Positions 28,233 through 60,354 are shown, numbered from the stretch's first letter. The stretch is 64,000 bases of DNA from Candidatus Woesearchaeota archaeon (GCA_964432435.1 CAYSNL010000001.1:10511-74510), one strand, 5' to 3'. Made by a program: numbers and translations. The notes: a model not told the origin generated them from the letters alone.

Positions 28233-28718
28233 ATGATAAAGCACCTTAAAATAAATTATCAAATCAAAGCCCAAGAAGTTAAGCTAATAAATGAAGAAGG
28301 AGAATTCAAGGGGATACACCCAATACAGCAAGCCTTAAATATGGCTATGGCATCAGGTCTAGATTTAGTTGAAGTATCTCCAGGAACTTGTAAAATTTTA
28401 GACTATGGGAAATTCATATACGAACAAAAGAAAAAACAGACAAAGCAGAAATTGCAAGATACTTTAGAAATTAGATTGTCTCCCAATATAAATAATCATG
28501 ATGTAGAATATAAAATTAAGCATGCAAAAAGAATCCTATCCCGAGGAGACAAAATTAAACTAATTATAGTCTTTAAAGGCCGTCAAATGCAGCATACAGA
28601 TTTAGGAATTGGATTATTAAAAACTGTGACTGAAAGGCTTATAGACACAGCTATTTTAGCAGATAATCCAAAATTAGAAGGAAAATATCTAAGTGTTACA
28701 GTAGCCCCGAAAAAGTAA
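28233..28718 (+). CDS. infC: Translation initiation factor IF-3 homolog
   Basis: Full-length colinear similarity to bacterial IF3: IKAQEVKL (IRAQEVRL), GLDLVEVSP (GVDLVEISP), CKILDYGKFIYE (CRIMDYGKFLYE), FKGRQMQH (FRGREMAH), TVAPKK (VLAPKK). Confidence 0.85.
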   Translation: MIKHLKINYQIKAQEVKLINEEGEFKGIHPIQQALNMAMASGLDLVEVSPGTCKILDYGKFIYEQKKKQTKQKLQDTLEIRLSPNINNHDVEYKIKHAKRILSRGDKIKLIIVFKGRQMQHTDLGIGLLKTVTERLIDTAILADNPKLEGKYLSVTVAPKK

Positions 28719-35846: not shown

Positions 35847-35921
35847 GGCGGGGTGGAGCAGCGGCAGCTCGTTGGGCTCATAACCCAAAGGTCGTTGGTT
35901 CGAATCCAACCCCCGTCTCCC
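35847..35921 (+). tRNA. tRNA-Met (anticodon CAU); anticodon stem has the three G-C pairs typical of initiator tRNA. A lysidine-type tRNA-Ile2 cannot be excluded
   Basis: Acceptor GGCGGGG/CCCCGTC. D-arm GAGC-AGCGGCA-GCTC. Anticodon arm TTGGG-CTCATAA-CCCAA. T-arm GTTGG-TTCGAAT-CCAAC. Confidence 0.75.
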
Positions 35922-36307: not shown

Positions 36308-36385
36308 GCAGCAATAGCTCAATTAGGTAGAGCAGATGTCTTATATACATCCAGGCTGAAGGTTCAAATCCTTCTTGCTGCACCA
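36308..36385 (+). tRNA. tRNA-Ile (anticodon UAU, reads AUA), with encoded CCA
   Basis: Acceptor GCAGCAA/TTGCTGC. D-arm GCTC-AATTAGGTA-GAGC. Anticodon arm GATGT-CTTATAT-ACATC. T-arm GAAGG-TTCAAAT-CCTTC. Discriminator A then CCA. Confidence 0.7.
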
Positions 36386-38313: not shown

Positions 38314-39513
38314 ATGATTAATTTACTATATGATCTACAGCTAAGCGTATTAGACTCATTAGATGACGGGAATTTTATTATGACTACGGACTCTAATGTA
38401 AATGTAGCCACTGTATTGATAAAAAATTTACTTAATTTGTCTAATAACATAAAAATTTATGTTTTAGTGCCGCCAAAGTCTAAAATCCTAAACTTTAAAA
38501 ATTATTTATTAAGTGACATACAATCTTCCAATTTAGACTTTATTGAGTACAAATATTATGGAAATCCGTTCGTAGATAGGATGTCCTTTTTTAGTCGAGA
38601 TTTAATTCAATCTCTGAAGAACTTGAAAGTTGATATTGTCTATACTAATGATCCATGCAAAGTTCTGGGGTATAAGACAGTGCTATATAGTCTATTATCA
38701 AAACCGGTTCCAGTGATGTCCAGAAATCACTGGGTGACCGGAAAGACAGACTATAAGGTTCCACAATACATTGACTTTGCTCTTAGACAATGCGAAGGAG
38801 CTTTGTATTCTGATAATGCTACTTTCAATTCAAAATTTGCTGTCGATTCATTCTTATATAATGCAGAACAATACTTGAATAAAGAGACGATAGAGTCACT
38901 GTCTAAAAAATTAGATCATATAGAATGTGTAGACATAGATAAAATTGATCAATATAGAACTGATGAAAAGTTTGATGAATTTACTATGATTTTTGCAAAT
39001 AGACTTAGTTATTACACTGGATGGAAAGAGACATTAGACGCTATAAATAGACTATGGAAAAGACGAAAAGATTTTCAAGTCATAGTCCCAGACCCTGGAA
39101 ATAAATTCAAACAAGAAGACTTATTTTCTGAATATAATTTTATTAAGACAGTGAATAAAGATACTTGGACTCATGAAGATTACATAAAAACCTGTTGGAA
39201 AGTAGATGCCTGTATAGGTAACCATAAATATCCGGCTACTTGGGGCGGACTGGCTATAACAGAACCAATGGCAGCGTACAGTATTCCTATTATTCCTAAA
39301 AGACACGCTTATTTAGAAATGTTTGATTCAGACTCTCATTCTTTTTTTACTGATGAAAATGATCTTATTAGAGCCATTGAATTTTATTTAGACAATAGAG
39401 AAATTTTAGAGAAAGATAAGCTAAGAGCCAGAGCCTTTTGTGAAAAGAATCTTTCACCTCAAAAATTTGCTGAATTTATTTTAGATAAGCTTAATATGCT
39501 ATGCATATCATAA
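38314..39513 (+). CDS. GT-B (GT4-like) glycosyltransferase
   Basis: C-terminal WGGLAITEPMAAYSIPII matches the GT4 E-x7-E motif (EGFGLPVLEAMACGTPVIA type). Confidence 0.6.
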   Translation: MINLLYDLQLSVLDSLDDGNFIMTTDSNVNVATVLIKNLLNLSNNIKIYVLVPPKSKILNFKNYLLSDIQSSNLDFIEYKYYGNPFVDRMSFFSRDLIQSLKNLKVDIVYTNDPCKVLGYKTVLYSLLSKPVPVMSRNHWVTGKTDYKVPQYIDFALRQCEGALYSDNATFNSKFAVDSFLYNAEQYLNKETIESLSKKLDHIECVDIDKIDQYRTDEKFDEFTMIFANRLSYYTGWKETLDAINRLWKRRKDFQVIVPDPGNKFKQEDLFSEYNFIKTVNKDTWTHEDYIKTCWKVDACIGNHKYPATWGGLAITEPMAAYSIPIIPKRHAYLEMFDSDSHSFFTDENDLIRAIEFYLDNREILEKDKLRARAFCEKNLSPQKFAEFILDKLNMLCIS

Positions 39514-40436
39514 TAACTGGTTGTGATAAAACTGGAAAAAGTTTTTTGGCTAGAGAGTTAAGCAAACGTTTATATTTTCCAGTTATCAATAGGCTAGTTC
39601 CAAAACAAAATATTTTTATAGAATGTATTGACACGTTAACTGAATTAAAAAGTCCAATGATAATAGATAGATTTCATATAGATGAAGAAGTCTATGGACC
39701 AATAAAACGTGGAAAAAGTAGATTTGATTTTAGACAATATAAGATAATAGAGCTTTTGATGTTGATGTTAAAAACAGTTAATGTTTATTGTATAGATTCG
39801 GAAAGTTCAATTCAGTCTAGAATAAACTTATCAAAAGAAAATGAATACATATCTAGTAACGAAGTCAACATAATTTTACGGTCATATGATAATTGCTTAA
39901 GGACCAGTATTTTAACTTGGAATACGTATAAATTAGGAGATGATATTAGTCCATTAGTAAGTTTGATACAAAAACAAACACTGAATTTAAGACGCAGACT
40001 TAATTTTTTGTCCTATAGGACAATAGGAAATTTACTCGGATCTATTTTAATAGTTGGAGATAGATATGGAGACAAATTATTGCCACCTCTAATTCCATTT
40101 GGTAATAATGAGCCAGGACTAAGATTATTTTTAGCTTTAGAAAAGTCTAATCTGTCTTGGTCTGATATAATAATAACTAACTCAATTAAATTAAATAAAA
40201 ATGAAATCGGACTAGAAATTGACAATAAAAAAGCTTTAATTGAAGAATGTTCTTTGCCGAATATAAAAGTCATAGTCTGTTTGGGAAATAACGCGTATAA
40301 TAATGTATTGGCCATTAAACCAAAAATTTCGAACAATGTCATAATAAACAAAATACCTCACCCGAGTGCTTGGTTTGTCTATCAAAATAAATCCATAGAA
40401 AGTTATTCGAGACTAATAGATGCAGCAATACTTTAA
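39501..40436 (+). CDS. P-loop (deoxy)nucleotide kinase-like domain fused to a UDG-superfamily-like domain
   Basis: N-terminal IIITGCDKTGKSFLAREL Walker A. C-terminal IPHPSAWF (HPS motif B of uracil-DNA glycosylase fold) preceded by ILIVGDRYGDK in the motif A position. Confidence 0.45.
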   Translation: MHIIITGCDKTGKSFLARELSKRLYFPVINRLVPKQNIFIECIDTLTELKSPMIIDRFHIDEEVYGPIKRGKSRFDFRQYKIIELLMLMLKTVNVYCIDSESSIQSRINLSKENEYISSNEVNIILRSYDNCLRTSILTWNTYKLGDDISPLVSLIQKQTLNLRRRLNFLSYRTIGNLLGSILIVGDRYGDKLLPPLIPFGNNEPGLRLFLALEKSNLSWSDIIITNSIKLNKNEIGLEIDNKKALIEECSLPNIKVIVCLGNNAYNNVLAIKPKISNNVIINKIPHPSAWFVYQNKSIESYSRLIDAAIL

Positions 40437-42384
40437 AAAATCAATGACGTTGGTTAAGTCTAAATTAGACTTTTCAGATCTTTTAAGGTTTATTGCAAAG
40501 TCACAAAGCCTAGTCATAGATACTGAGACTTCAGGTCTAAGACTATGGCAAGATGATTTTGTGTCTGCTATTGGGATTGGAGATATAGACAGACAATTTT
40601 TTCTAGATTTGCGTCCTGATTGTTTGGATTATGAAATTAGTTTAAGTGAACTATTTGACTCTTTAAGAAAGACTAAAGTTATTATTGGCCATAATATAAA
40701 ATTTGACTTAGCCGGCCTATTAAGACTAGGATACGAGGTTCCAGATAATCAAGAAATTCATGACACAATTGTAATGGCTAGGTTGTTATCAATAGAAAGA
40801 TTTCCTAAGTTAGGTCTCACTCCTTTAATCCAACAGTACATTTCAGAGTTTGGTAGTCAATATGATATAGACTTTAAGCAGTTCTTAAAGACTAATAAAA
40901 TAAAGCTGTATTCTCAGTCCCCTAGTTTAGAGCTTGGGATCTACTGTTTAAATGATGTTTACTATACAGCTAGTCTATATGAAAAATTTAAACAATCATT
41001 AGTTTCTTTAAACTTGGTTGGACTTTGGAATCATGAGATTAAAGTAACTAAGACAGTTTGGAAAATGGAAAAACAAGGAGTTTTAATAGACAAGAAATAT
41101 TGTAGCACGGCCTTAAGTGTAATTAGCTTAAAGTCTAAGCAATTGGAGTCTGAAATTAACGAAGTGGCTGGTGAAGATGTAAACTTAGGAAGTAACAAAC
41201 AGCTATCAAAATTTTTTAGGGGTCTTAAATTAGAGGCTCCAACAAAAACTAAGAAGGGGGGCGAAAGTTGGGGAGAGGCTTCTTTAATTTTATTAGACCA
41301 TCCAGTAGCTAAGAAATTGTTATCTTGGAGAGGACTTCAAAAATTAAAGACATCATATTTTGAGACATACTTAGAAAGAGAAAGTCCATTACATTGCTCA
41401 TTTAAAAACTGGGGTACTGTTACTGGACGGTTTTCTTGTGTTGATCCTAATTTTCAACAGCTACCTAAAGAATTGACTAAAATTTTTGATGAAGATGAGA
41501 CTAAAGAACTGTCAGAATTTCAAAAGGCTGCCATAGCCTTAGTGAAGGCTGATAAAGAACGCCAAGGAGGCGGTAAACTTTTAATAAAGTCTGTGTCTTC
41601 ATATGAAGATGATATATTTGATGAAGAGAAACACATTTCTGCTAAGAGGTCTATAGTTCCTAGAGATGGAAATGTTTTTCTTAGTTTTGACTATTCTCAA
41701 ATGGAACTTAAGATTTTATTTTTTTATCTAAACAATGATGAAGCTAGACAATATTTGAGTGATCCAGACTGGGATGGGCATTCTTGGGTGGCCACTAAAA
41801 TTTGGGGGATTTCAGATAAAGATCCTAGTTTTCCAGCTTTCCGAAAATTAGCCAAGGCTATAAACTTTGGAATTATATACGGAGAAGGTGATAGACTATT
41901 AGCGGCTCAACTAGGGAAGACTGTTAACGAAGCTAAGAAGTTTAGAGAAGAGTATTATGCTAAAATTCCTGGAATAAGAGATCTGATTAATGGGATTCAT
42001 AAAAAGGTACAGACTAGAGGATATGTTTTCAATTACTTTGGACGGAGATATTATGCAGACCAAGACAGAGAATATGTTTTATTAAATTATTTAATCCAAG
42101 GAACGAGCGCTGATTTAATTAAAAATAGAATGGTGGCGATTGATAATGATTTAGAATTAAGGTCTATTGGACTAAAGCTAATCTTACAAATTCATGATGA
42201 ACTAATTTTTGAATGTCCAAAAGATAAGATTGATTATTCAGTTAAACTAGTTAAACAGATTCTAGAATTTCCAGTTCTAAAGGTTCCATTGGCCTCTAAA
42301 GCATATATTCACTATCCTAGTTTGGCTAGTAAATTTGATTATGGATTAAATTGGAGAGATAATGCTGGACTTTCAATCAATTGA
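40420..42384 (+). CDS. Family A DNA polymerase (Pol I-like) with 3'-5' exonuclease domain
   Basis: Exo I LVIDTETSGL; motif B RKLAKAINFGIIYG; motif C LQIHDELIFE. Confidence 0.9.
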   Translation: MQQYFKKSMTLVKSKLDFSDLLRFIAKSQSLVIDTETSGLRLWQDDFVSAIGIGDIDRQFFLDLRPDCLDYEISLSELFDSLRKTKVIIGHNIKFDLAGLLRLGYEVPDNQEIHDTIVMARLLSIERFPKLGLTPLIQQYISEFGSQYDIDFKQFLKTNKIKLYSQSPSLELGIYCLNDVYYTASLYEKFKQSLVSLNLVGLWNHEIKVTKTVWKMEKQGVLIDKKYCSTALSVISLKSKQLESEINEVAGEDVNLGSNKQLSKFFRGLKLEAPTKTKKGGESWGEASLILLDHPVAKKLLSWRGLQKLKTSYFETYLERESPLHCSFKNWGTVTGRFSCVDPNFQQLPKELTKIFDEDETKELSEFQKAAIALVKADKERQGGGKLLIKSVSSYEDDIFDEEKHISAKRSIVPRDGNVFLSFDYSQMELKILFFYLNNDEARQYLSDPDWDGHSWVATKIWGISDKDPSFPAFRKLAKAINFGIIYGEGDRLLAAQLGKTVNEAKKFREEYYAKIPGIRDLINGIHKKVQTRGYVFNYFGRRYYADQDREYVLLNYLIQGTSADLIKNRMVAIDNDLELRSIGLKLILQIHDELIFECPKDKIDYSVKLVKQILEFPVLKVPLASKAYIHYPSLASKFDYGLNWRDNAGLSIN

Positions 42385-43249
42385 TTCTGCCTATACTGAG
42401 ATATTAAACATCTTAGATAAAGACGGATTTTTAAATAAGAGACGAAATGGAGAAGTAAAAGAATGCTATCATTTAATGATGTGTTTGTCTAATCCAAGAC
42501 ACAGAGTAATTCAAAATTCAAGCAGAAAGATAAGTCTATCAATGTTAGTCGGAGAATTTTTTTGGATTTTGTTTGGTAGAGATGATTTGGATTTTATATC
42601 CTTCTATAATTCAAAAATGATTGAATACTCCGATAATGGAAAGTCTTTATTTGGGGCATATGGAAAGCGTTTGACTAGTCAATGGTCTGGAGTTATAGAA
42701 AGAATCTTATCTGATAAACTAACTAGACAGGCAGTATTACCGATTATAGATAAAAGTGACTCTACGGCTATGACTAAAGATTTTCCATGTAATAATCTTC
42801 TTCATTTTTGGAGTCAAGACGGCACTAGTCTAAATTTAACCGTGTATATTAGATCTCAGGATATGTTTTTAGGATTTCCGTATGATGTTTTTCATTGGAC
42901 AATGTTTTTAGAGAACATGGCTATGACTTGTAATATGAGACTTGGGAAATACTATCATATAATGCAAAATTGTCATTATTACATTAAAGACTATGAAAAA
43001 GTTCAGTTGATAAAACAAGCTAATAGTTTTGTTAGTTTACCAATGAACTCTATATTAGAAAGTTGTTTTGATAAGTCTGTAGAAAATAGACTAATAGAAT
43101 CAGAATCAAAAACTCGGCAGAACGGGGTTTATGTAAACTTATTCGATGAAAAGTCAATTTGGTCAGACTTTATAAAAATAGTTCAGCATAGAAAAAGCAA
43201 TAAAAAAGTTTCTTTATTTGATGGAGCTTTAACTAATGTCTATAGATAG
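42362..43249 (+). CDS. ThyA-family pyrimidine C5-modifying enzyme, predicted deoxycytidylate hydroxymethylase
   Basis: Aligns with thymidylate synthase: FGAYGKRLTSQW (YGKQWRAW); DFPCNNLLHFW (APCHAFFQFY, catalytic Cys retained, PCH to PCN); RSQDMFLGFPYDVFHW (RSCDVFLGLPFNIASY). The substrate-specifying Asn is replaced by Asp, as in T4 dCMP hydroxymethylase. NCHYY (DTHLY). Confidence 0.65.
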   Translation: MLDFQSIDSAYTEILNILDKDGFLNKRRNGEVKECYHLMMCLSNPRHRVIQNSSRKISLSMLVGEFFWILFGRDDLDFISFYNSKMIEYSDNGKSLFGAYGKRLTSQWSGVIERILSDKLTRQAVLPIIDKSDSTAMTKDFPCNNLLHFWSQDGTSLNLTVYIRSQDMFLGFPYDVFHWTMFLENMAMTCNMRLGKYYHIMQNCHYYIKDYEKVQLIKQANSFVSLPMNSILESCFDKSVENRLIESESKTRQNGVYVNLFDEKSIWSDFIKIVQHRKSNKKVSLFDGALTNVYR

Positions 43250-43580
43250 ATTATTCAAAGATCAAGTTAGATTTACAGATAAGATCATTAATGATTTAAG
43301 TGTGAATGTATCTAAAACTGAGTTAATAAAAGAATATTTGCTGTCTTTGCATGATGAACTATCAGAAATTCTTCATTGCACAAATTGGAAATGGCATAGA
43401 GAAGATTACGGATCAGACATAGACTATGAGAATTTATATGTGGAATTAATAGACACACAAAAGTTTTTATGGGGGCTGATGCATATTTGTGGAATGGACA
43501 TAAATAAGTTTGAAGAAGTGTATGATAAGAAAAGTAAAATTGTAGAAGAGCGTTTAATGAAATTGAAAGGGAAACAATAG
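43236..43580 (+). CDS. MazG-like all-alpha NTP pyrophosphohydrolase (candidate dCTP/dUTP-clearing enzyme)
   Basis: 114 aa all-helical with acidic cluster (ELSEILHCTNWKWHREDYGSDIDYEN...ELIDTQKFLWGL); position between the ThyA-like gene and ThyX. Confidence 0.45.
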   Translation: MSIDRLFKDQVRFTDKIINDLSVNVSKTELIKEYLLSLHDELSEILHCTNWKWHREDYGSDIDYENLYVELIDTQKFLWGLMHICGMDINKFEEVYDKKSKIVEERLMKLKGKQ

Positions 43581-44363
43581 TTGAGTCAATTAATTCTACC
43601 TAAGGTATTCATCATAGGAGAGTCTAAGATTGATTCTGTTGGTTTGCAACAATTATTAAACCATTTGAGTGTTCCTGCATGGAAATCAGATGCTGACACC
43701 GATGTAGAAAAACTTCTGGAAGTCTATGGAAGGGCTTGCTATAAGTCATTTGATGTTATTCTAAATCCTAATTTAACTCGTGTAAGAAAGCACAATGATG
43801 AATACATAAAGAACATTATAGAAAAAGGAGACGGTAGTGTATTAGAACATGGTATGATTAATTTCTTTTTTGCTGATGTGAGTAGAGTTTTTACCCATGA
43901 GTTAGTTAGGCATCGTGTCGGAACAGCCATAAGTCAAGAGAGCTTAAGATTTGTTAGATTGACAGATTTGAACTGGTACGCCCCAATTTGTATTCAAGAG
44001 GATGTTCAGGCTATGGAGATTTTTTCAAGGACACTCAATAGTTTAAGTCAACTTCAAAAAGACTTGGCAGACCTATATAATATAGATAACATGTCTTTTG
44101 AGAAGAAAAAGGAATTAACTTCAGCTTTTAGACGTCTTGCCCCTGATGGGTTAGCTACAAATATCGGGTGGTCTGCAAATATTAGAACAATTAGACATGT
44201 ATTGGAGATGAGGACTAATCCCTCAGCTGAGGAAGAAATCCGATTAGTCTTTTCTCAAGTAGGAAAACTAATGAGGGAAAGATATAAGACGTTGTTTGAT
44301 GACTATGAGACCGAGATTGTTAATGGAATTGATTGGTACAAAACTAAACATAGAAAAGTATAA
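43581..44363 (+). CDS. thyX: Flavin-dependent thymidylate synthase ThyX
   Basis: ThyX signature RHR-x7/8-S: HELVRHRVGTAISQES; TTG start. Confidence 0.8.
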   Translation: MSQLILPKVFIIGESKIDSVGLQQLLNHLSVPAWKSDADTDVEKLLEVYGRACYKSFDVILNPNLTRVRKHNDEYIKNIIEKGDGSVLEHGMINFFFADVSRVFTHELVRHRVGTAISQESLRFVRLTDLNWYAPICIQEDVQAMEIFSRTLNSLSQLQKDLADLYNIDNMSFEKKKELTSAFRRLAPDGLATNIGWSANIRTIRHVLEMRTNPSAEEEIRLVFSQVGKLMRERYKTLFDDYETEIVNGIDWYKTKHRKV

Positions 44364-44375
44364 GGAGATCTAGAA

Positions 44376-44606
44376 TTGCAAGAGCCATTAAGTTTTGAAA
44401 AAATAATTACTGACTGTAGAGAGAAGCTGACTAAACTTCAAGCCACACTCGAGAGTGTACATCAAATAATATTGACCATATCTCAGTCTTATTACTGGAC
44501 TCCTGAATGGCAAGCCAAAGAGAAACGAGCAGACGAGGATGCTCGGGCTGGAAGGTCAAAACAGTTCAAATCTGCCGAAGAATTGATCAGGGAGTTGAAG
44601 TCATAG
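44376..44606 (+). CDS. Hypothetical small protein
   Basis: 76-aa ORF with GGAGA RBS. Confidence 0.35.
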   Translation: MQEPLSFEKIITDCREKLTKLQATLESVHQIILTISQSYYWTPEWQAKEKRADEDARAGRSKQFKSAEELIRELKS

Positions 44607-44766
44607 TCTATGCCCGAGTGGACATTGGGGAGCTCAGATGGCTTCAAGGCTGATTATAAGGCAAAGCCACCGATGTTCAGCCGAGGAAATATGAATAAGG
44701 CTCAAATGATTGATGATGTAGAAGATGCTATAAGCATTCTTATATGTGCTTTATTGAGGAATAACC

Positions 44767-45246
44767 ATGGTAAATAGACCTTCATGGGATGATTACTTCT
44801 TGGGGATTGCTAAAGTTGTAAGTAGCAGGGCTTCATGCCCTAGGGCAAGCTCAGGATGTGTTTTAGTTCTAGATAAGAGAATTTTGTCTACAGGTTATAA
44901 TGGGGCTCCTGTTGGAGAAAAGACGTGTTTAGATATAGGATGTAATGTAAAAGACAGACATTGTGTCAGGGCAGTACATGGCGAAAGAAATGCCATTTTG
45001 TGGGCTGAAAAATATTTTTCAGTAAAGCAACTAAAGGAAGCGACTTTGTACGAATACTATGCAGCTCATAGCGATGAATCAGTAAAGAATTATTATCCTT
45101 CTCAAGATTCTGTAGAGTCATTAGACTTTTTTCCGTGCAAACCATGTAAAGAATTGATGTTAGATAGAAAAATCAAAGAAGTAATTTGTCAATATGGGAA
45201 TGGAATTATAAAAGTCTATAAGAACTATCATATTGGAGAAAAGTAA
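44767..45246 (+). CDS. Deoxycytidylate (dCMP) deaminase
   Basis: HGERNAILWA (HAE-type zinc ligand motif) and FPCKPCKELM (PCxxC). Confidence 0.75.
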   Translation: MVNRPSWDDYFLGIAKVVSSRASCPRASSGCVLVLDKRILSTGYNGAPVGEKTCLDIGCNVKDRHCVRAVHGERNAILWAEKYFSVKQLKEATLYEYYAAHSDESVKNYYPSQDSVESLDFFPCKPCKELMLDRKIKEVICQYGNGIIKVYKNYHIGEK

Positions 45247-45390
45247 AATGGGAAATATTCAAGATTTATCTATTTATGATCCAGATATTTGGCTTAAGAT
45301 GTGTGTGACTTTAAAGATTGAGCTGCCAGACGAGGTTTGGAAAAAGTATATAGATGGCCTATATCCTAGTTTATTTTTTAGGGGGTAGAA

Positions 45391-45594
45391 ATGTCGCAAG
45401 CTTATAAGTGTGATATGTGTAAATGTTTATTTGATTATAGACCAACAAGAGAATTAGAGTTTTCAGAGCATTACGGGCCAGAGCCTGATGCTAAGAGAGT
45501 TCATGCAATAGCTGAAATGAGAGGTGATTATTGTAGAGATTGCTTAGCGGAGATTTTAAGAAATAAGATAAATTATTTGGGAAGACAAAAATGA
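45391..45594 (+). CDS. Small zinc-ribbon protein
   Basis: CDMCKC...CRDC. Confidence 0.35.
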   Translation: MSQAYKCDMCKCLFDYRPTRELEFSEHYGPEPDAKRVHAIAEMRGDYCRDCLAEILRNKINYLGRQK

Positions 45595-45658
45595 AAGAAA
45601 AGATTGGTAAAAAGCTAAATTTTGACCCATTATTCGGAGAAGACGGGGAGTAAATAAA

Positions 45659-45871
45659 TTGGCAAAAATTTCTCAGCAACTTTCTTTTACATTTAGAATC
45701 GGGGTAGATCAAAAAGGTCAATTTGCCAAAGTCACAGTACAAATTGATGAAATAGATACAGAATTACCAATAAAGGAGCAATTAGAGAAAGTTGATGGCG
45801 CTCTAGATAAAGTCTGGGCATACATAAAGAAGAAAGTTGATGCCCAGATAGATGAAGTATTAGATAATTGA
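45659..45871 (+). CDS. Hypothetical small protein
   Basis: 70-aa ORF; TGAATG junction with next gene. Confidence 0.35.
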   Translation: MAKISQQLSFTFRIGVDQKGQFAKVTVQIDEIDTELPIKEQLEKVDGALDKVWAYIKKKVDAQIDEVLDN

Positions 45872-46687
45872 ATGAAATCTTATTCTTTGTTAAATATAAC
45901 TGGGAATAAGAGAAGCATAGCAGACCAAATTTTTTCTATTTTACCATTAGATTGTTCAGGATTAACTTATGTTGATCCATTTTTTGGGTCTGGAGGAGCA
46001 TATTTCAATGTCTCAAGAAATTTTTTAAGCTATGAGTGTTCTGATTTATTTCCGCTTATTATAAATTTTATATGCCAAGATTTTTCAAATGAAATTTTAA
46101 GCGATTATTATAACAAAGTAACACAAAAATGGGACTTCCATAATAAAGATGCTTATTATAATTTTAGAGAATTTTGGAATGAAAATAGAGAAAAAGGTCC
46201 TAGAATTAAATATATAGGTTTTATGCTTTTAGCGGGAGCATGTATTAATGGTCTATATAGATTTGGCCCAAATGGTTTTAATCAGTCGTATGGAAATAGG
46301 ATAATGAAGAAAGAACAACTTTTAGACTATAAGAAACATATTAAGTCTAATAGTAGTTTTTCAATAAAGAATTTTTTAGACATAGTCCCGTCTAAAACTT
46401 CAGTATTGTATTTAGACCCCCCATATTCTGATACAGGGGCTTTAACTCAAATGTTTGGATTTTGGGAATTGGGTTTGGCGCAAGATTTAAATCTTATAAG
46501 ACTAATTAAGTCTCAAGATGAGTGTAACGGTAAGTTTATTCTTAGCACTATTAAAAATTCTTTTTTACATAATGAATTAAAAGACACATTTAGAAATATT
46601 GACATAAAGAAAACTTATAAAGTAAGTGTAGGAAAGCATTTAGCTTCGTCTCATGAAGAAATTATAGTTACAAATCTAGGAGATTAA
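45872..46687 (+). CDS. Dam-like N6-adenine DNA methyltransferase
   Basis: Motif I DPFFGSGGAYF and motif IV LYLDPPYSDT. Confidence 0.75.
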   Translation: MKSYSLLNITGNKRSIADQIFSILPLDCSGLTYVDPFFGSGGAYFNVSRNFLSYECSDLFPLIINFICQDFSNEILSDYYNKVTQKWDFHNKDAYYNFREFWNENREKGPRIKYIGFMLLAGACINGLYRFGPNGFNQSYGNRIMKKEQLLDYKKHIKSNSSFSIKNFLDIVPSKTSVLYLDPPYSDTGALTQMFGFWELGLAQDLNLIRLIKSQDECNGKFILSTIKNSFLHNELKDTFRNIDIKKTYKVSVGKHLASSHEEIIVTNLGD

Positions 46688-46689
46688 TC

Positions 46690-47625
46690 TTGTCGAAGAA
46701 GAATGATTCAATAGAAGAATTGCTAAAAAACGGCTTAATGAAATATGGCTCCGATAAGAGTTTGTTATTCGATAGGGTAGCATTTGGGATAGAGTCGTTA
46801 GACAAGCTAGTAGGCGGCGGGATACCTAAAAAGAGAATGTCATTGTTTACTGGCCCCCCAAGTTCAGGGAAATCATATTTAGCATCACAAGCTGTAGTTA
46901 GTGAACAAAAGAATGGTGGAGTAGCAGCTTGGATAGATACGGAGTTATCTTGGGATCCAGTTTGGATGGAAAGATGTGGGGTTGATATTGATAAAATTTA
47001 TTTAGTTCAGCCGACAACAGGAGAAGAAGCATTTGATACGATTAAAGTGTTAATGAATGAAAAAGTAGGAGTTATTGTTCTAGACAGTATTGCAGGAATA
47101 GTCCCGACAGCGGTGCAAGAAGAAGATTTTTCATACAATCCTGTAGCATGGCAGGCTAGGTTTGTTAATCAATCTATTCCTAAACTATTTCCTTCATTAA
47201 AGAACGGGTCAGCCTTAATCGTAATAAATCAAGTCCGTTCTAGTCTTGGGCCCGTGTCATTAGATAATATGCCAGGAGGAGTGGCACAGCAATTCTTTGC
47301 ACATTTCATATTGCAGATTAGGCGAGAAGGCTGGATAGAAGATGCTGATAAAAACAAGATGGGGTTTGACATAAAAATAAGTTGTAAGAAAAGTAAGGTT
47401 GGAGGACAGCCGTATCAATCTTGCACAGTCCCATTTAGACTAGAAGGTGGGATTGATCTTTTGGAAACTGTCATCAGAGAAGCATTAGACAAAGGTATAA
47501 TAGAACAAGCTAGGGCTTGGTTTAAATGGGGAGATCTTAAAGTGATTGGGATGAAAGGAGTTAAAGAATATTTGATAAATAATCCAGATAAAAAATTAGA
47601 GTTGGAAAGTTTAATCAAAGAATAG
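46690..47625 (+). CDS. RecA/RadA-family recombinase
   Basis: Walker A FTGPPSSGKSYLASQ, RecA-like core; TTG start. Confidence 0.65.
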   Translation: MSKKNDSIEELLKNGLMKYGSDKSLLFDRVAFGIESLDKLVGGGIPKKRMSLFTGPPSSGKSYLASQAVVSEQKNGGVAAWIDTELSWDPVWMERCGVDIDKIYLVQPTTGEEAFDTIKVLMNEKVGVIVLDSIAGIVPTAVQEEDFSYNPVAWQARFVNQSIPKLFPSLKNGSALIVINQVRSSLGPVSLDNMPGGVAQQFFAHFILQIRREGWIEDADKNKMGFDIKISCKKSKVGGQPYQSCTVPFRLEGGIDLLETVIREALDKGIIEQARAWFKWGDLKVIGMKGVKEYLINNPDKKLELESLIKE

Positions 47626-53097: not shown

Positions 53098-54585
53098 ATG
53101 TATCAAGTCATCGGGAAAAATTATATAAATGGTCAATGGGTGGAGCTCAAGAATCATTTTTATTCATTAAATCCGTCTAATACAAATGAAGATATCGGGA
53201 TTTTTCCTCAGTCTGTATATTCTGAAGTAGATTTAGCTGTTGAGGCTGCAAAAGATGCCTTTAGATCTTGGAAAAGTTTGTCTAGAATTAATAGGGCGGA
53301 GTATTTTAATGCATTTGTAAAAAATGTGGAGAAAAATTTTGATGAACTTGTGCATTTAATGTGTAGGGAAAGCGGAAAACAAATAAATGAATGCAAAGCT
53401 GATGTAATTGAAGGGATTCATATGGCTCAATATAACTTTGGTAGAGCAAGGATGCCATATGGAGAAGTAATGGCATCAGAAATTGCTAGTAAGGATGCAT
53501 TTATGTTGCGAAAACCAAAAGGGGTAATCGCAGCAATAACTCCTTGGAATTTTCCGTTTGCTATTCCTTTATGGTTAATTATTCCATCTTTGCTAGAAGG
53601 AAACACTGTTGTATTCAAACCGTCAGAAGACACTCCTGCTGTAGGAGAATTTTTAGTTAAAATGTTTGATGAAGTTAGTTTACCCCCAGGAGTATTAAAT
53701 CTAGTTCAGGGAGATGGGGGGACTGGATGGGATTTAGTTACAAATACTGATATTAAGGTAGTGTTATTTACTGGCTCCTATGCTGTTGGGTCTAAAATTA
53801 GGAAAGAATGTGCTGGTTCTATAGACAAAATGGCAGTGTGCGAGATGGGCGGGAAAAACGCTATTATTGTGTTGGAAGATGCAGATTTGGATTTAGCAGT
53901 AAATGCATGCATTTTAAGTGCCTTCAAAACTGCTGGTCAAAGATGTGTATCTGCTTCCAGATTGATAGTTCATAGGTCTATTTTGAAAGAATTTGAGGAT
54001 AAATTTGTAAATAAGGCTAAAAATTTAATAGTTGGGGATCCTCTTGATTCAAGCACCTTTATGGGGCCAGTAATAAATCTAGAGGCTATTAATAAAATTT
54101 TGTCTTATAATGATATGGCTCGGAAAGAGGGTGTTGAAATATTATTAAATGGTTCCAGACTTGTAGAAGGGAAATATTGGGATGGGTATTTCATGTCTCC
54201 ATTTGTATATGAAACGGAAAATAGATTTTCTAAAGTCTTGAAGGAAGAGGTGTTTGGGCCTCATGTGGCTATTATCCCATTTGATACATTAGAAGATGCA
54301 GTCAGTCTATATAATAGTACTGATTATGGTTTTGCATTAGCTGTAATATCTAATGATTATCGTAAGATTAAATATTTACAGCAGAATTGTGATTTTGGAG
54401 TGGGATATGTAAATCTTCCCAGCATAGGCGCAGAAGTTCATTTGCCATTTGGTGGTACAAAGAAGAGTGGTTCTGGGATGCCTTCAGCCTCTGCTTTAAT
54501 TGATGCTGTAACACACAGAGTAGCCTGGACTGTTAACTATGCAGATGAAATTCAATTAGCCCAAGGATTAAATGCAAAGGTATGA
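53098..54585 (+). CDS. NAD(P)-dependent aldehyde dehydrogenase
   Basis: ALDH Glu site CEMGGKNAI, Cys site FKTAGQRCVSASR, cofactor-binding FTGSYAVGSKI, and WNFPFAIP. Confidence 0.9.
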   Translation: MYQVIGKNYINGQWVELKNHFYSLNPSNTNEDIGIFPQSVYSEVDLAVEAAKDAFRSWKSLSRINRAEYFNAFVKNVEKNFDELVHLMCRESGKQINECKADVIEGIHMAQYNFGRARMPYGEVMASEIASKDAFMLRKPKGVIAAITPWNFPFAIPLWLIIPSLLEGNTVVFKPSEDTPAVGEFLVKMFDEVSLPPGVLNLVQGDGGTGWDLVTNTDIKVVLFTGSYAVGSKIRKECAGSIDKMAVCEMGGKNAIIVLEDADLDLAVNACILSAFKTAGQRCVSASRLIVHRSILKEFEDKFVNKAKNLIVGDPLDSSTFMGPVINLEAINKILSYNDMARKEGVEILLNGSRLVEGKYWDGYFMSPFVYETENRFSKVLKEEVFGPHVAIIPFDTLEDAVSLYNSTDYGFALAVISNDYRKIKYLQQNCDFGVGYVNLPSIGAEVHLPFGGTKKSGSGMPSASALIDAVTHRVAWTVNYADEIQLAQGLNAKV

Positions 54586-54628: not shown

Positions 54629-54865
54629 ATGATATGGCAAGATATTGTAATAATGATTGGCCAAGTCTTATTTTCAATTTCGTTAATTCCAATTTTGCGG
54701 GCTAAAACTAAGCCTCCAAAGTTTACGTGTTTTTTAACAGCCAGTATTTTAGGCAGTTTCTTTATAACATTTGGGACATTGTCTTTATGGATGTCAATGT
54801 TTTCATGTCTCCTAAATGGAACTTTATGGTGTTGGATAGGATTACAGAAAGGCATAAGAATATGA
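54629..54865 (+). CDS. Small integral membrane protein
   Basis: 78 aa, two hydrophobic helices; ATGA coupling to the HAD gene. Confidence 0.35.
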   Translation: MIWQDIVIMIGQVLFSISLIPILRAKTKPPKFTCFLTASILGSFFITFGTLSLWMSMFSCLLNGTLWCWIGLQKGIRI

Positions 54866-55419
54866 ATATAGCTATAGATATTGAAGGGACTGTTGCTGAT
54901 GTGCACGAAGCATTTTTACAATGGTTTAATACTAAGTATGACACTAATTTTACGATTAAAGATATTGACAATTGGAATATAGCAAAGACAAAATTAGGAA
55001 TAACAACATCAGAGTTTATTGAATCTCTTAGAAAGCTATGGAAACAACAATGCACTATGACTTTGACAGATAGTAATATCCCAAAGATAATTGATAGGTT
55101 AATAGATTCAGGGCATAGAATTTATTTTGTGACTGCTCATTATGAGGTCGCGCCACAAATTATTGATTGGATTAATAAGAATAGACTAAAACATTCGGGC
55201 TTCATGGCTGTAAAGAATACAGAAGTAAAGAAGATTCTTTCATTTGATTTATTTATTGATGATTGCCCATTATTAGTGGAATCTTTAGGGCACCGACTTT
55301 TTTTATATAATAGACCATATAATACAAATACAAAAGCTATTAATCGTTTTACTGATTTTTCAGAATTAACTAATCGAATAAACATGTGGCCAAGGAGGGG
55401 AGAGAATGAAAGCTTGTAA
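54862..55419 (+). CDS. HAD-superfamily phosphatase / 5'(3')-deoxyribonucleotidase-like
   Basis: N-terminal DxDxT motif MNIAIDIEGTV. Start set to the ATG at 54862 rather than the track start 54727. Confidence 0.55.
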   Translation: MNIAIDIEGTVADVHEAFLQWFNTKYDTNFTIKDIDNWNIAKTKLGITTSEFIESLRKLWKQQCTMTLTDSNIPKIIDRLIDSGHRIYFVTAHYEVAPQIIDWINKNRLKHSGFMAVKNTEVKKILSFDLFIDDCPLLVESLGHRLFLYNRPYNTNTKAINRFTDFSELTNRINMWPRRGENESL

Positions 55420-56495: not shown

Positions 56496-58121
56496 GTGTC
56501 CCAATCTCTTTTGACATACAAACAAGCACTAACTAATCTAGCTGATAGTTTATTAACTAGAGACGAAAAGTCCATCAAAATAGGTGGATTTTATGAATTT
56601 GTAAGGGATATTTGGTCTAAAAGTTATGAGCATCCTGAGCGTTTCAAGATGTTCCACATCGAAGTAATATGCCATGATGTAGAAGAAGCATTAGCTACTG
56701 GTAAAAATTATGTTTGTGTTCTTCCTCGAGGGTTTTTAAAGTCAACGGTGCCTGGATATGCTTTTTGTATTTGGCGTTTATTGAAAATGGGAAATTCAGA
56801 CAGTACAATTCTTTATACATCATTTTCAGATGGGATGAGTCAATACCATATATCTGAAATGAAGAAACATATAAGGCGTAATCCAATTCTTTCTGAATGG
56901 ATGATAGACAGGAGTCCAAATGCTGACTTTTCATTTAGATATTCTGTAAATGGATTCCAAAAGAATATTTTACATGGTGGGGTTTTGTCATTCAAAAGAG
57001 GGACCCACGTAGATGGGGCAGTGGTGGCGGATGATCTCTTACAGGACCCAGATAATCCAGCCAGGCCTACAGAGATATTAAAGGTTGAAGAATTTTTCTT
57101 TTCAGAGACAATGTATATTCCTAATCCAGGAGTGCCAGTCTTTGTATTAGGGACTCCCTTATTACCGGACGATCTATTATCAAAGCTTAAAAAAGATGAT
57201 CGTTTTTTGTATCGTTTTATGCCGGCCTTAGACCCAATTCCAGGAAGAAGAGTTTTAGCCCCAGAAATTAGAGATGAAGCCCAGTTGTTAAGAGAAAAAG
57301 CTGCAAGACCTCACGCTTTTGCAGCAGAAATGATGCTATCTCCTATGTCTTCTGTGAAGGGATATTTTACTGATACTGATATTAGTAGATGTGAAAATAA
57401 AGATTTAGCATCATTTGATCCATACAAAGAATGGGATTTTAACAGTGAGTTTACAGTTGCTGGGTTTGATGTGGGAAAAAAGAGGCACCCCTCTCATCTA
57501 GCTGTTTATGCAAGTAAAGGAGGTGTACTGAAACAAGTTCATCAAGTATTTCTAGATGGATGGGATTATAATATTCAAAAAGAATATTTAAATACAGTAG
57601 CCAAAAATTTTGCTCTTGATGTAGGATACTATGACAGCACCAGAGGAGAATTAGACGATAGGGGGCTAGATTCTAGGTGGAAGTCATTAAATTTTACCTT
57701 GAAAGACAAGAGAAAAATGGCCCAGGTGTTTGAAGAATTTGTTCAATCAGGAAATTTATCTCTTATTGTTGATGAACGTCAAAAATCGCAAATATTGGCA
57801 GTGGATAATGACTTAGATGCAGCAGAGAGTCCGCTCGGGCATGGAGATTCATTTTGGTCTAATGCTTTAGCATTATTAGCATACAAAGACAAGACAACAG
57901 TTGGGACGCAAGATGTTGGAAATGTTCAGGATATATTTGGAAACGATAAGACTAAAGAAAATATTAATTTTAAAGAATTTGTGCAACCAATAAATTTAGG
58001 CACAGGATGCCCTAATTGTAAAGAATTTGTAGGCTGGATAGAAGAAAGAAAATTATGCTTGATTTGCCAGCATAGATGTAATGATAATTGTATTCATACT
58101 GGAGAGAAAAATGGGGGCTAA
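56496..58121 (+). CDS. Terminase large subunit
   Basis: Deviant Walker A of terminases (VCVLPRGFLKSTV), acidic nuclease-like C-terminal half; GTG start. Confidence 0.55.
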   Translation: MSQSLLTYKQALTNLADSLLTRDEKSIKIGGFYEFVRDIWSKSYEHPERFKMFHIEVICHDVEEALATGKNYVCVLPRGFLKSTVPGYAFCIWRLLKMGNSDSTILYTSFSDGMSQYHISEMKKHIRRNPILSEWMIDRSPNADFSFRYSVNGFQKNILHGGVLSFKRGTHVDGAVVADDLLQDPDNPARPTEILKVEEFFFSETMYIPNPGVPVFVLGTPLLPDDLLSKLKKDDRFLYRFMPALDPIPGRRVLAPEIRDEAQLLREKAARPHAFAAEMMLSPMSSVKGYFTDTDISRCENKDLASFDPYKEWDFNSEFTVAGFDVGKKRHPSHLAVYASKGGVLKQVHQVFLDGWDYNIQKEYLNTVAKNFALDVGYYDSTRGELDDRGLDSRWKSLNFTLKDKRKMAQVFEEFVQSGNLSLIVDERQKSQILAVDNDLDAAESPLGHGDSFWSNALALLAYKDKTTVGTQDVGNVQDIFGNDKTKENINFKEFVQPINLGTGCPNCKEFVGWIEERKLCLICQHRCNDNCIHTGEKNGG

Positions 58122-60354
58122 TTTAACACCACAAGCAAAATATATTTTAGAGCAAAGATATTTAAGACGAGATGAGAATGGAGACATTATTGAAACTCCA
58201 GAACAATTGTTTGAACGAGTGGCAAGGGCAGTCTCTAATGGAGAGCCAATAGAGAGTGACAGACAAATATATTTTCAAAGATTTTATGACTTAATGACTT
58301 CATTGAAATTTTTGCCTAATTCTCCTACATTGGTAAATGCTGGAGTAGAAGGAAAAGGTTGCCTAAGCGCATGTTTTGTTTGCTCCCCCGAAGAAGACAC
58401 GATGGAGTCAATTTTACAAACACAGAAAGATTGGGGGATGATAGAGAAATGGGGTGGCGGAGTAGGAATAGGCTTAAGCATTATTAGGCCAAAAGGTGAC
58501 AGAATCAGTACCACTCACGGAAAGGCATTAGGGCCAGTAGCAATAATGCATATGTTGTCTACAAATGCAAAGCATATAACACAGGGCAGCTTTCGTCTCG
58601 GGGCCCATATGGCTCAATTAGCTGTTTCTCACAATGATATTTTTGAGTTTATCCACTGTAAAGACAAAGATGATACATTAGAGAATTTCAATATTAGTGT
58701 ACAGATAACTGATGAGTTTATGCAGGCCTTAGAAAAAGGGGAGGACTGGCATTTAGTGAATTCTAAAAACAATGAAGTAATGCAGACAATTCCAGCCAAA
58801 CAATTATGGCAGGAAATATGCGGGTCTGCTTGGAAAACAGGAGATCCAGGAGTAGTATTCATAGACCGGGTATGGGAAACAGCCCCAAATCCACAATTAG
58901 GGGGGATTCAGACGAGCAATCCCTGCGGGGAGGAATTTCTTGAAAATTACTCAAATTGTTGTCTCGGTTCCATAGATTTAAGTAAATTTGTTATTGAGGG
59001 AAAGTTTGACTTTGAGGATTTTGATAGAGTAGTTTATTTAGCAATTAGATTTTTAAATGATGTAATTGAAGTTAATACATTCCCAATTCCCCATTTACGT
59101 GAAATGAACTTGAAGACTAGGCGTATTGGTTTGGGAGTAATGGGGTTTGCCGATGCATTGATAAAATTAGGGCTGCCATATGACAGCGAAGCTGCATTAG
59201 GAATGGCTAGATTGATAGGAAAAAAACTAAAAAATTCAGCATGGTTAGAATCTTTTAGATTGGCTGATGAAAGAGGGGCATATTCTGAGTATAAAAATTC
59301 TAGCCTCAAGTATGAATTTAAAAATAAGCCAGTTAGAAATTCTAGTGTCATAACCATAGCTCCTACAGGCACGATTTCGAGATTGGCTAATTGTTCCAGC
59401 GGCATAGAGCCGTGTTTTGATTTAGCTTATTGGTCTAATATTTTATGGACAGATCATGATGGGAAAAGCACTAAATTTCTTGATGTCCCATCTAGTGTGA
59501 AAGACGTACTAGAACGAGATTGGGGGGCGGAGAAAGTTAATGAAATTTTAATAGCTATTGCTAATAATCCAGAGAAAACCCGAGCAATTCTGAAAGCATA
59601 TTATGGAATTAATGCAGACATATTTAGAACAGCAATGGAAATATCTCCTGAATGGCATGTAAAAATGCAGGCGGCATGGCAGGAGAATGTAACAAATTCT
59701 GTATCCAAGACAATAAATCTTCCAGAAGATGCTACTGTAAATGATGTATCCGAGGCTTTTAAATTAGCTTGGGAATTGAAGTGCAAAGCTGTGACTGTAT
59801 ATAGGGACAAATCAAAGTCTATGCAAGTATTAAATAAGGCAGAAGGACTTAGTGAATTAGTAAAAGTTATAGACAATATAAAGCTAGTTGTCAAAGACAG
59901 GCCTGCGGTAATGACTGGAGTTACTGAAAAAGTAAAGACTGGGCACGGAAATGCTTATGTAACAATCAATTTTGAAGGTACAGACCCATTTGAATTATTT
60001 ACTACGTTGGGGAAAGCTGGGGGCTGTGACTCGGCAAATTTAGAAGCAATATCTAGATTAGTATCATTAGCTTTTAGATATGGAATTGATACAAAAGAAG
60101 TAATTGCACAGCTAAAAGGCATTACTTGCTGCCCAGTATGGAATGAAGGCACAATGATAAAATCAACGGCAGATGGAATAGCATATGCAATATCTAAAAA
60201 TGTATTAAAAGAGGATGAAATAAGTTATAATAATAAAATAGGTGGGTCTATAGAGAAAAATGGGCATTTAGTATGCATACAGTGTGGAGGAGAATTGATT
60301 CGTAAAGAAGGTTGCATTGTTTGTAAAGATTGCTCTTGGACTCGTTGTGAGTAA
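58111..60354 (+). CDS. nrdJ: Ribonucleotide reductase catalytic subunit (class II-like, adenosylcobalamin-type) with C-terminal zinc ribbon
   Basis: Active-site loop SNPCGEEFL; N-terminal LEQRYL. C-terminal CIQCGGEL...CIVCKDC zinc ribbon. Start moved to ATG at 58111 with GGAGAG RBS. Confidence 0.8.
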   Translation: MGANLTPQAKYILEQRYLRRDENGDIIETPEQLFERVARAVSNGEPIESDRQIYFQRFYDLMTSLKFLPNSPTLVNAGVEGKGCLSACFVCSPEEDTMESILQTQKDWGMIEKWGGGVGIGLSIIRPKGDRISTTHGKALGPVAIMHMLSTNAKHITQGSFRLGAHMAQLAVSHNDIFEFIHCKDKDDTLENFNISVQITDEFMQALEKGEDWHLVNSKNNEVMQTIPAKQLWQEICGSAWKTGDPGVVFIDRVWETAPNPQLGGIQTSNPCGEEFLENYSNCCLGSIDLSKFVIEGKFDFEDFDRVVYLAIRFLNDVIEVNTFPIPHLREMNLKTRRIGLGVMGFADALIKLGLPYDSEAALGMARLIGKKLKNSAWLESFRLADERGAYSEYKNSSLKYEFKNKPVRNSSVITIAPTGTISRLANCSSGIEPCFDLAYWSNILWTDHDGKSTKFLDVPSSVKDVLERDWGAEKVNEILIAIANNPEKTRAILKAYYGINADIFRTAMEISPEWHVKMQAAWQENVTNSVSKTINLPEDATVNDVSEAFKLAWELKCKAVTVYRDKSKSMQVLNKAEGLSELVKVIDNIKLVVKDRPAVMTGVTEKVKTGHGNAYVTINFEGTDPFELFTTLGKAGGCDSANLEAISRLVSLAFRYGIDTKEVIAQLKGITCCPVWNEGTMIKSTADGIAYAISKNVLKEDEISYNNKIGGSIEKNGHLVCIQCGGELIRKEGCIVCKDCSWTRCE

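Follow-up and report, generated by a model that had tools for sequence, protein, structure and literature searches.

A complete IF3 homologue with a trimmed linker and N-terminal loop in a tailed phage genome of at least 110 kb

The stretch of DNA analysed here, called the window in the following, comprises 64,000 nucleotides deposited under the name Candidatus Woesearchaeota archaeon (GCA_964432435.1, CAYSNL010000001.1:10511-74510). Nearly all of its genes are located on the plus strand, with a coding density of approximately 96%. They include genes for a tail tube protein, TerL (56496-58121) and the portal protein (61163-63082), for replication and nucleotide metabolism, i.e. SNF2 and DnaB helicases, primase, a family A DNA polymerase (PolA), RecA and ribonucleotide reductase, and for ThyX, a ThyA-like enzyme, two deaminases and a Dam-like methylase. 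The contig reaches at least 10 kb further upstream, where RtcB and RlaP are encoded, and approximately 10 kb further downstream, where it carries genes for an ADP-ribosyltransferase-domain protein, a NUDIX protein and another SNF2 helicase. The flanking genes are phage-like and nearly all on one strand across approximately 94 kb, and the DNA is that of a tailed phage whose genome measures at least 110 kb.

The ORF scan of the window gave an uninterrupted, infC-like reading frame of 161 amino acids at positions 28233-28718 on the plus strand, which starts with ATG and ends with TAA. Its product carries both domains of translation initiation factor IF3, the N-terminal domain (NTD) at residues 7-71 (28251-28445; IF3_N, PF05198, E 3.6e-23) and the C-terminal domain (CTD), which is the 30S-binding and anti-association domain, at residues 79-160 (28467-28712; IF3_C, PF00707, E 1e-25). 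Between them lies a Lys-rich linker of residues ~58-78 (28404-28466), which the alignment places 4 residues below the cellular length. The comparison with the infC family, suggested as a check by the earlier note, returned IF3 proteins as best matches. The NCBIfam equivalog TIGR00168 (infC) scored 155.3 bits over model positions 4-169 of 170, at a curated cutoff of 60 bits, and PHROG 9787, annotated as 'translation initiation factor', was matched over profile positions 2-168 of 168 with E 9.7e-37. The top PDB matches of the protein are full-length IF3 chains (5me0_Y, 6.6e-35; 8jsg_A from E. coli, 1e-30). An AlphaFold2 model built from 46 aligned homologues reached a mean pLDDT of 90.5, and Foldseek superimposed its CTD on the crystal structure 1tig with a TM score of 0.91 and an rmsd of 1.2 Å, and its NTD on 1tif with 0.85 and 1.0 Å. 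Hence, Pfam, TIGR00168, PDB and the AlphaFold2 model agree with the initial description of a complete IF3 homologue with both domains, and the presence of such a two-domain protein in a phage genome is confirmed far beyond chance. That the gene is phage-encoded, as also claimed from the sequence before, follows from the tail tube, TerL, portal and replication genes around it and from the PHROG 9787 match. Binding to the 30S subunit, the timing of expression and a benefit to the phage are roles that we infer for the protein.

The sigma-factor-like gene that had been noticed nearby is indeed present at 27491-27955 on the plus strand. It encodes 154 amino acids with region 2 only (Pfam PF04542, Sigma70_r2; PHROG 351 at 1.4e-6) and is the conserved upstream neighbour of the IF3 gene. 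Between both genes lies an ORF for 71 amino acids (27933-28148, plus strand), for which a PHROG profile search gave no match, but whose position is kept in a related phage. In addition, a possible ORF for a hydrophobic leader of 32 amino acids can be read from the sequence at 28138-28236 on the plus strand; it is preceded by GGAG at 28125-28128, 9 nt ahead of its ATG, and its TGA stop overlaps the IF3 start codon (ATGA). This ORF is tentative, because the database gene caller left it uncalled. The IF3 gene itself carries no Shine-Dalgarno motif, whereas most genes of the window are preceded by AGGAG-type motifs. The overlap in the absence of an own Shine-Dalgarno motif suggests that translation of IF3 is coupled to that of the upstream ORF. 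A scan for promoters and terminators between 25.5 and 31.5 kb gave counts no different from shuffled sequence, so no signal above chance delimits a transcription unit.

A single orthologue of the phage IF3, with 68% identity, was found on a 10.8-kb contig (L009) from another sequencing run. This contig carries, in the same order as the window, genes for a TSCPD protein, a tRNA, small ORFs, the sigma-like gene, a 74-aa ORF (3856-4080 of L009), IF3, a deaminase and an SNF2 helicase. The order of sigma-like gene, small ORF and IF3 is therefore kept in both phages; the sigma-like orthologue is 67% identical, and the IF3 ATG likewise overlaps the stop codon of the upstream 74-aa ORF. The codon comparison of both IF3 genes gave a dN of 0.20 and a dS of 1.88, i.e. 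a dN/dS of approximately 0.11, a value that is approximate as dS is near saturation. This ratio indicates clear purifying selection on the phage IF3 gene. The phage clade is sampled by these two members: a search with IF3 gave no orthologue above 52% identity other than that of L009, the sigma-like protein matched only itself and its L009 orthologue among 5.8 billion proteins, and no relative of the SNF2 helicase was found in IMG/VR. Furthermore, megablast of 25 kb around the IF3 gene gave no match at the DNA level to 50,697 phage records, among which there is hence no sequenced close relative.

These data also bear on the question whether a bacterial infC was mis-assembled or mis-binned onto a phage contig, or whether a captured gene is decaying there. 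The identical IF3 protein appears in NCBI as MBI2020092.1 on a 109,932-bp contig that is filed under the bacterial MAG name 'Candidatus Daviesbacteria bacterium', and some of the 'phage' IF3 matches in the databases are clearly bacterial DNA, e.g. with a thrS-infC arrangement, which could speak for such an origin. However, the gene order around IF3 was assembled independently from five sequencing runs and recurs in the diverged second phage, and the phage-like flanks and the low dN/dS also stand against it, as does the fact that no cellular IF3 exceeds approximately 50-52% identity. Moreover, the GC content of the gene (31.7%) and its GC3 (24%) equal those of its neighbours, which argues against a recent capture or a chimera. 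We therefore rejected mis-assembly or a passenger gene as an explanation and consider it extremely improbable. The Daviesbacteria label reflects MAG binning only.

Next to the L009 orthologue, the best matches are cellular IF3 proteins with at most 50-52% identity, the best of which (P0003) comes from Treponemataceae MAGs and sits in the normal infC-rpmI-rplT arrangement. Generally, bacterial IF3 proteins (infC; 1TIF, 1TIG, 5LMN, 5ME0) share 40-52% identity with the phage protein and resemble it in the two-domain architecture, the predicted domain folds and most of the mapped residues. In contrast to them, the phage copy is phage-encoded, lacks an N-terminal extension, has an ATG that overlaps an upstream ORF, carries 4-residue deletions in a loop and in the linker, and differs non-conservatively at the equivalents of K94, F117, R129 and E134. 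Chromosomal infC loci are characterised by the infC-rpmI-rplT context and by an autoregulated, often non-canonical start, whereas the phage gene starts with ATG and stands outside such an operon.

IF3 genes of phages represent a known class (GAP32, Atu_ph07, huge phages, PHROG 9787). They are annotated in jumbo phages such as GAP32, CBB and their relatives, with genomes of 337-378 kb, in Atu_ph07 and Phosso of 470-490 kb and in huge phages of 460-735 kb. Like the present protein, the jumbo- and huge-phage IF3s (Cronobacter phage GAP32, Agrobacterium phage Atu_ph07, Sinorhizobium phage Phosso, the LR7565xx genomes, PHROG 9787) are full-length and encoded alongside tRNAs and translation genes, but those genomes span 340-735 kb and their IF3s have linkers of 26-28 residues and normal loops. 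The gene beside IF3 codes for a Clp ATPase or ClpS in Atu_ph07, Phosso and GAP32, but here for the sigma-like factor. More similar in genome size are two IMG/VR phages (UViG_3300042518_001152 and UViG_3300047666_001259, 106 kb), in which IF3 also occurs in a ~100-kb genome among clear phage neighbours, namely genes for endolysin, helicase, a T5-type DNA transfer protein and homing endonucleases. The linker of one is likewise short (21 residues), but both differ from the present phage in their neighbours and strand organisation, have a full-length NTD loop and show 35-39% identity. Among the other viral IF3s as a whole, identity to the phage protein is 26-42%. As the identity to the jumbo-phage proteins is below that to cellular IF3, the gene looks like an old acquisition, which to judge from these comparisons was probably made independently of the jumbo-phage ones. 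Phage IF3 has been viewed as a probable factor for the redirection of ribosomes (Al-Shayeb et al., 2020, PMC7162821; PMC7824862), while according to a paper from 2025 the function of IF3 in phages cannot be stated (PMC11895373).

For a closer comparison at the residue level, we used the best 120 IF3 matches, which comprise the two phage orthologues and 118 other, cellular proteins, together with 11 other viral IF3s. The E. coli residues compared were those implicated in 30S binding and fidelity, in part according to the literature. All nine of them (Y70, Y75, D106, K110, R112, R116, R131, R133, R168) are either identical in the phage protein or replaced from R to K. Identical in the alignment are Y70, Y75, D106, K110, R116 and R133 (Y58, Y63, D90, K94, R100 and R117 of the phage protein), whereas R25, R66, R112, R131 and R168 correspond to K17, K54, K96, K115 and K151. 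The equivalent of R99 is S, as is also the case in Geobacillus, and that of the variable Q33 is F25. The contacts of the NTD to the elbow of the initiator tRNA, made by R25 and R66, aid the discrimination of start codon and initiator tRNA, and R25 has been called invariant in IF3 (PMC9723500). Among the best 118 other matches, R is found at the position of R25 in 86% and K in none.

Two deletions of 4 residues each set the phage protein apart. The loop between beta3 and beta4 of the NTD reads SPGTC in place of the usual SPNAxPPVC and consists of 5 residues, compared to 8-9 in the 118 cellular and 11 viral IF3s; it directly precedes the equivalent of the elbow-contacting R66. The linker segment from Y58 to E79, with the Lys-rich sequence YEQKKKQTKQK, counts 22 residues vs 26 in all 118 other best matches, and is modelled as a helix (58-70) followed by a coil (71-76). 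Only the two phage orthologues among the best 120 matches have either deletion, and both carry the two. We also considered that a short linker and loop are a general phage adaptation, which was rejected, because 10 of the 11 other viral linkers have 26-28 residues (21 in the one IMG/VR phage) and the loop is full in all 11. Hence, the trimming is a peculiarity of one lineage and no general phage trait. Furthermore, the two phage proteins have shared substitutions in alignment columns with 97-100% conservation among the homologues. The equivalent of E. coli K94 is L here and L or Q across the two phage proteins, compared to K in 118/118; that of F117 is I in both (F in 118/118), and that of E134 is Q in both (E in 116/118). 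In addition, the equivalent of R129 is V in both (R in the three aligned cellular references).

The short linker and loop together with the changes at near-invariant positions raise the possibility that the protein does not act as a plain IF3. A changed or relaxed proofreading could bias initiation to phage mRNAs and/or to the tRNA-Met of the phage, and would make initiation partly private to the phage. In E. coli, shortening of the linker is reported to lower fidelity and to lead to mis-decoding of the start site (Ayyub et al., 2017, as cited in PMC8266586), and mutations of the NTD elbow contacts lower fidelity as well (PMC9723500). Both deletions are common to the two phage orthologues and absent among the 118 cellular and 11 viral IF3s, except for the one short-linkered viral protein. 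However, the changes at the elbow-contact residues are only conservative (R to K), and the linker is a flexible segment whose natural length varies from 21 to 28 residues among viral IF3s.

The earlier note had mentioned three tRNA genes nearby, including an initiator-like tRNA-Met. ARAGORN and Rfam identified four in the window, all on the plus strand: tRNA-His(GUG) at 26458-26529, tRNA-Leu(UAA), which decodes UUA, at 26579-26662, tRNA-Met(CAU) at 35847-35920 (Rfam tRNA, 66.3 bits) and tRNA-Ile(UAU), which decodes AUA, at 36308-36385. The first two lie 1.6-1.8 kb upstream of the IF3 gene and the last two 7-8 kb downstream. In the phage genes, UUA represents 48% of the Leu codons and AUA 43% of the Ile codons. 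The match of tRNA-Leu(UAA) and tRNA-Ile(UAU) to these dominant codons is the usual pattern of codon compensation, and the fit to AT-rich codons hints at a host with a higher GC content than the phage.

The initiator-like character of tRNA-Met holds for the body of the molecule. As in bacterial initiator tRNA-fMet, the molecule has A11:U24 and, in the anticodon stem, three G:C pairs (G29-31:C39-41). Unlike in bacterial initiators, which are mismatched at this position, the acceptor end is closed by a G1:C72 Watson-Crick pair, followed by G2·U71 and with U73. The 1:72 mismatch is the determinant of initiator tRNA for formylation and against binding of EF-Tu, and initiator-type tRNAs that lack it are poor formylation substrates in E. 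coli and able to elongate. Since an initiator-type body is combined with a paired 1:72 position, tRNA-Met is initiator-derived but without the defining mismatch. A pattern scan of representative genomes for the 5' half of this tRNA gave at least 118 cellular tRNAs; the pattern required G1, and tRNAs of the CPR were not fairly sampled. Among the at least 118 tRNAs listed, position 1:72 is unpaired in all, with G1 opposite A72 in 116 of 118, G2:C71 is found in all and A73 in all but one, and the 3' ends read CCCCGCA or CCCCGCT. The closest of the matches listed is an initiator tRNA from a Chloroflexia MAG, which is identical to the phage tRNA at positions 1-49. The combination of a D-loop with CGGC and a T-loop of the TTCGAAT type was found only in Chloroflexota-labelled MAGs among the listed matches whose labels were checked. 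The at least 118 genomic loci carrying these initiator-type tRNAs were also searched with the phage IF3 by tblastn, and no infC was found in them.

With regard to a modified initiation, it is relevant that tRNA-Met retains the G:C pairs that are inspected by IF3 and that it differs from all of the at least 118 listed cellular initiators across positions 1:72, 2:71 and 73. Nevertheless, tRNA-Met and IF3 are tied by theme only, the genes lie approximately 7 kb apart, and no tRNA-Met was seen on the short (10.8-kb) related contig L009; in addition, the start-codon usage of the called genes is ordinary. Weighing these points, we consider an altered specificity of the phage IF3 rather unlikely. The more specific assumption that the compact IF3 and the closed G1:C72 tRNA-Met together constitute a phage-private initiation, possibly independent of formylation and with altered proofreading, which would favour phage over host mRNAs, is one to which we give little credence.

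It had also been proposed that the viral IF3 remodels initiation such that the ribosome tolerates GTG or TTG starts of phage genes, with ThyX, RecA-like and TerL genes as examples. Such starts are plausible and partly well supported in the window (RecA 46690, ThyX 43581, TerL 56496, portal 61163, ORFs 20342 and 44376), and AGGAG precedes those of RecA and of the ORFs 20342 and 44376. But non-ATG starts are not enriched, because the 89 database-called genes of this phage start with ATG in 80 cases (90%), with GTG in five and with TTG in four. A share of 9/89 is ordinary for bacteria. Moreover, AUG, GUG and UUG are all canonical starts that escape discrimination by IF3 (review PMC4611024), so the TTG and GTG starts provide no ground to invoke IF3. 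IF3 rejects AUU, AUA, AUC and similar codons; hence additional normal IF3 would tighten rather than relax the choice of start sites. The proposal is thus not upheld, and we regard a tolerance of this kind as very unlikely.

Downstream of the phage IF3 gene, in place of rpmI-rplT, lie short phage ORFs and a gene for dCMP deaminase. In E. coli, the autorepression of infC by IF3 acts through its non-canonical start codon. Given its AUG start and the absence of rpmI-rplT, the phage gene should escape such autoregulation. This raises the question whether unregulated, excess IF3 contributes to the shut-off of the host, in that it represses weak or non-canonical host mRNAs (leaderless ones, and infC if it has a non-canonical start) and keeps the ribosomal subunits separate, but spares phage mRNAs that combine AUG with a strong AGGAG motif. 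IF3 does repress non-canonical starts and leaderless mRNAs (PMC9723500; PMC4611024), and many phage genes carry strong AGGAG motifs. On the other hand, of the bacterial infC genes examined, the closest has TTG instead of AUU as its called start codon, so the logic of infC repression is not universal. Moreover, such a shut-off would follow from ordinary IF3 activity as a side effect and would not amount to a mechanism of its own. A shut-off function is therefore, in our view, improbable.

We consider it fairly probable that the phage protein supplies IF3 activity to the host 30S subunit during infection, outside the autoregulation of the host and as part of a package that supports translation. 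According to this assumption, IF3 would be expressed, along with the phage sigma-like factor, from the block of small genes that separates the tail and replication modules. Its synthesis would be free of an autorepression of the type known for host infC, due to the AUG start and the lack of rpmI-rplT, and apparently coupled to that of the upstream ORF. The protein would bind the host 30S subunit in the manner of the host IF3, with the CTD at the h44/h24/h45 interface, where it would block joining of the 50S subunit, and with the NTD touching the elbow of the initiator tRNA. In this way, 30S subunits that are free and competent for initiation could be kept in supply, which would permit fast and accurate initiation on phage mRNAs as host expression declines. 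The supporting set would comprise IF3, the four tRNAs matched to AT-rich codons and the RNA ligase RtcB.

Regarding the host, the aldehyde dehydrogenase (ALDH) of the phage has its nearest named relatives in Chloroflexi, Nitrospirae and NC10 at approximately 60% identity, with 61-63% for Chloroflexi. Together with the type of tRNA-Met, these relatives suggest that the host is probably other than Daviesbacteria, possibly a member of the Chloroflexota. As the ~110-kb contig filed in the Daviesbacteria MAG derives from a phage, the genes on it, IF3 and ALDH among them, should not be regarded as part of the metabolism of Daviesbacteria.

Reports of IF3 genes in phages go back to the first jumbo phages of the GAP32 type and to the huge-phage survey of 2020. 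The present example demonstrates that IF3 is not limited to phages larger than 200 kb, and that in this lineage the gene is under strong purifying selection and fixed beside a phage sigma-like gene. As a small and naturally trimmed variant, the protein would be convenient for biochemistry, and if its proofreading is altered, it would represent a natural tool to study how the linker and the NTD of IF3 set the fidelity of start-site selection.

In the window, a candidate mini-ORF for a hydrophobic peptide of 32 aa (28138-28236), which begins MKDKIIFFIVFLAAILIISL and has a GGAG motif of its own, overlaps the IF3 start with its stop codon, whereas the related phage contig L009 lacks this mini-ORF and there a 74-aa ORF directly abuts IF3. 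Both phages have in common a free-standing TSCPD-domain protein (101 aa, window 25906-26211), which is encoded just ahead of the block of tRNA, sigma-like and IF3 genes. In three cultured jumbo phages, Atu_ph07, GAP32 and Phosso, a gene for a Clp ATPase or a ClpS-like protein immediately adjoins IF3, and this recurring Clp-IF3 neighbourhood contrasts with the sigma-IF3 pairing of the window phage.

The tRNA-Met(CAU) at 35847-35920 has an initiator-type body with three G:C pairs in the anticodon stem and A11:U24, and its positions 1-49 are identical to the initiator of a Chloroflexia MAG among the matches listed. However, its acceptor end is closed (G1:C72, G2·U71, U73), while in the related cellular initiator tRNAs the 1:72 position was unpaired in 118 of the 118 matches listed, with G1 opposite A72 in 116 of them. 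Two further tRNAs read the top phage codons for their amino acids, namely tRNA-Leu(UAA) at 26579-26662 for UUA (48% of Leu) and tRNA-Ile(UAU) at 36308-36385 for AUA (43% of Ile). Bacteria seldom carry an Ile tRNA with the UAU anticodon, with which the lysidine modification is not needed.

A dense set of genes for nucleotide metabolism and DNA modification was observed at 38314-47625, 54727-55419 and 58081-60354. It comprises a glycosyltransferase-like and a UDG-like gene, PolA, a ThyA-like enzyme, ThyX, a second deaminase, a Dam-like methylase, RecA, an NT5C nucleotidase and a ribonucleotide reductase with a fused TSCPD domain (58081-60354), and it may represent a pathway for modified-base DNA. 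Furthermore, a full-length aldehyde dehydrogenase (53098-54585; Pfam Aldedh, E 3e-135), an unusual auxiliary metabolic gene of this phage, has its nearest named relatives in Chloroflexi, Nitrospirae and NC10 at approximately 60% identity.

The exact IF3 protein is also found as MBI2020092.1 on a contig of 109,932 bp, which was deposited within a MAG of 'Candidatus Daviesbacteria bacterium'. The approximately 94 kb that we inspected of this contig are phage DNA. Its placement in the MAG probably reflects either an artefact of binning or a link between phage and host that had gone unrecognised.

Beyond the window end, approximately 1-4 kb further on the same contig (L132, 13395-16395), a 679-aa protein with a DUF192 and an ADP-ribosyltransferase exotoxin domain, possibly a host-modifying enzyme, is followed by a NUDIX hydrolase. 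On the other side, approximately 5-7 kb before the window begins (L131, 2172-2468 and 4265-5419), an RlaP-like nucleotidyltransferase and an RtcB RNA ligase are encoded, which represent an RNA or tRNA repair function and fit the theme of translation maintenance in this phage.
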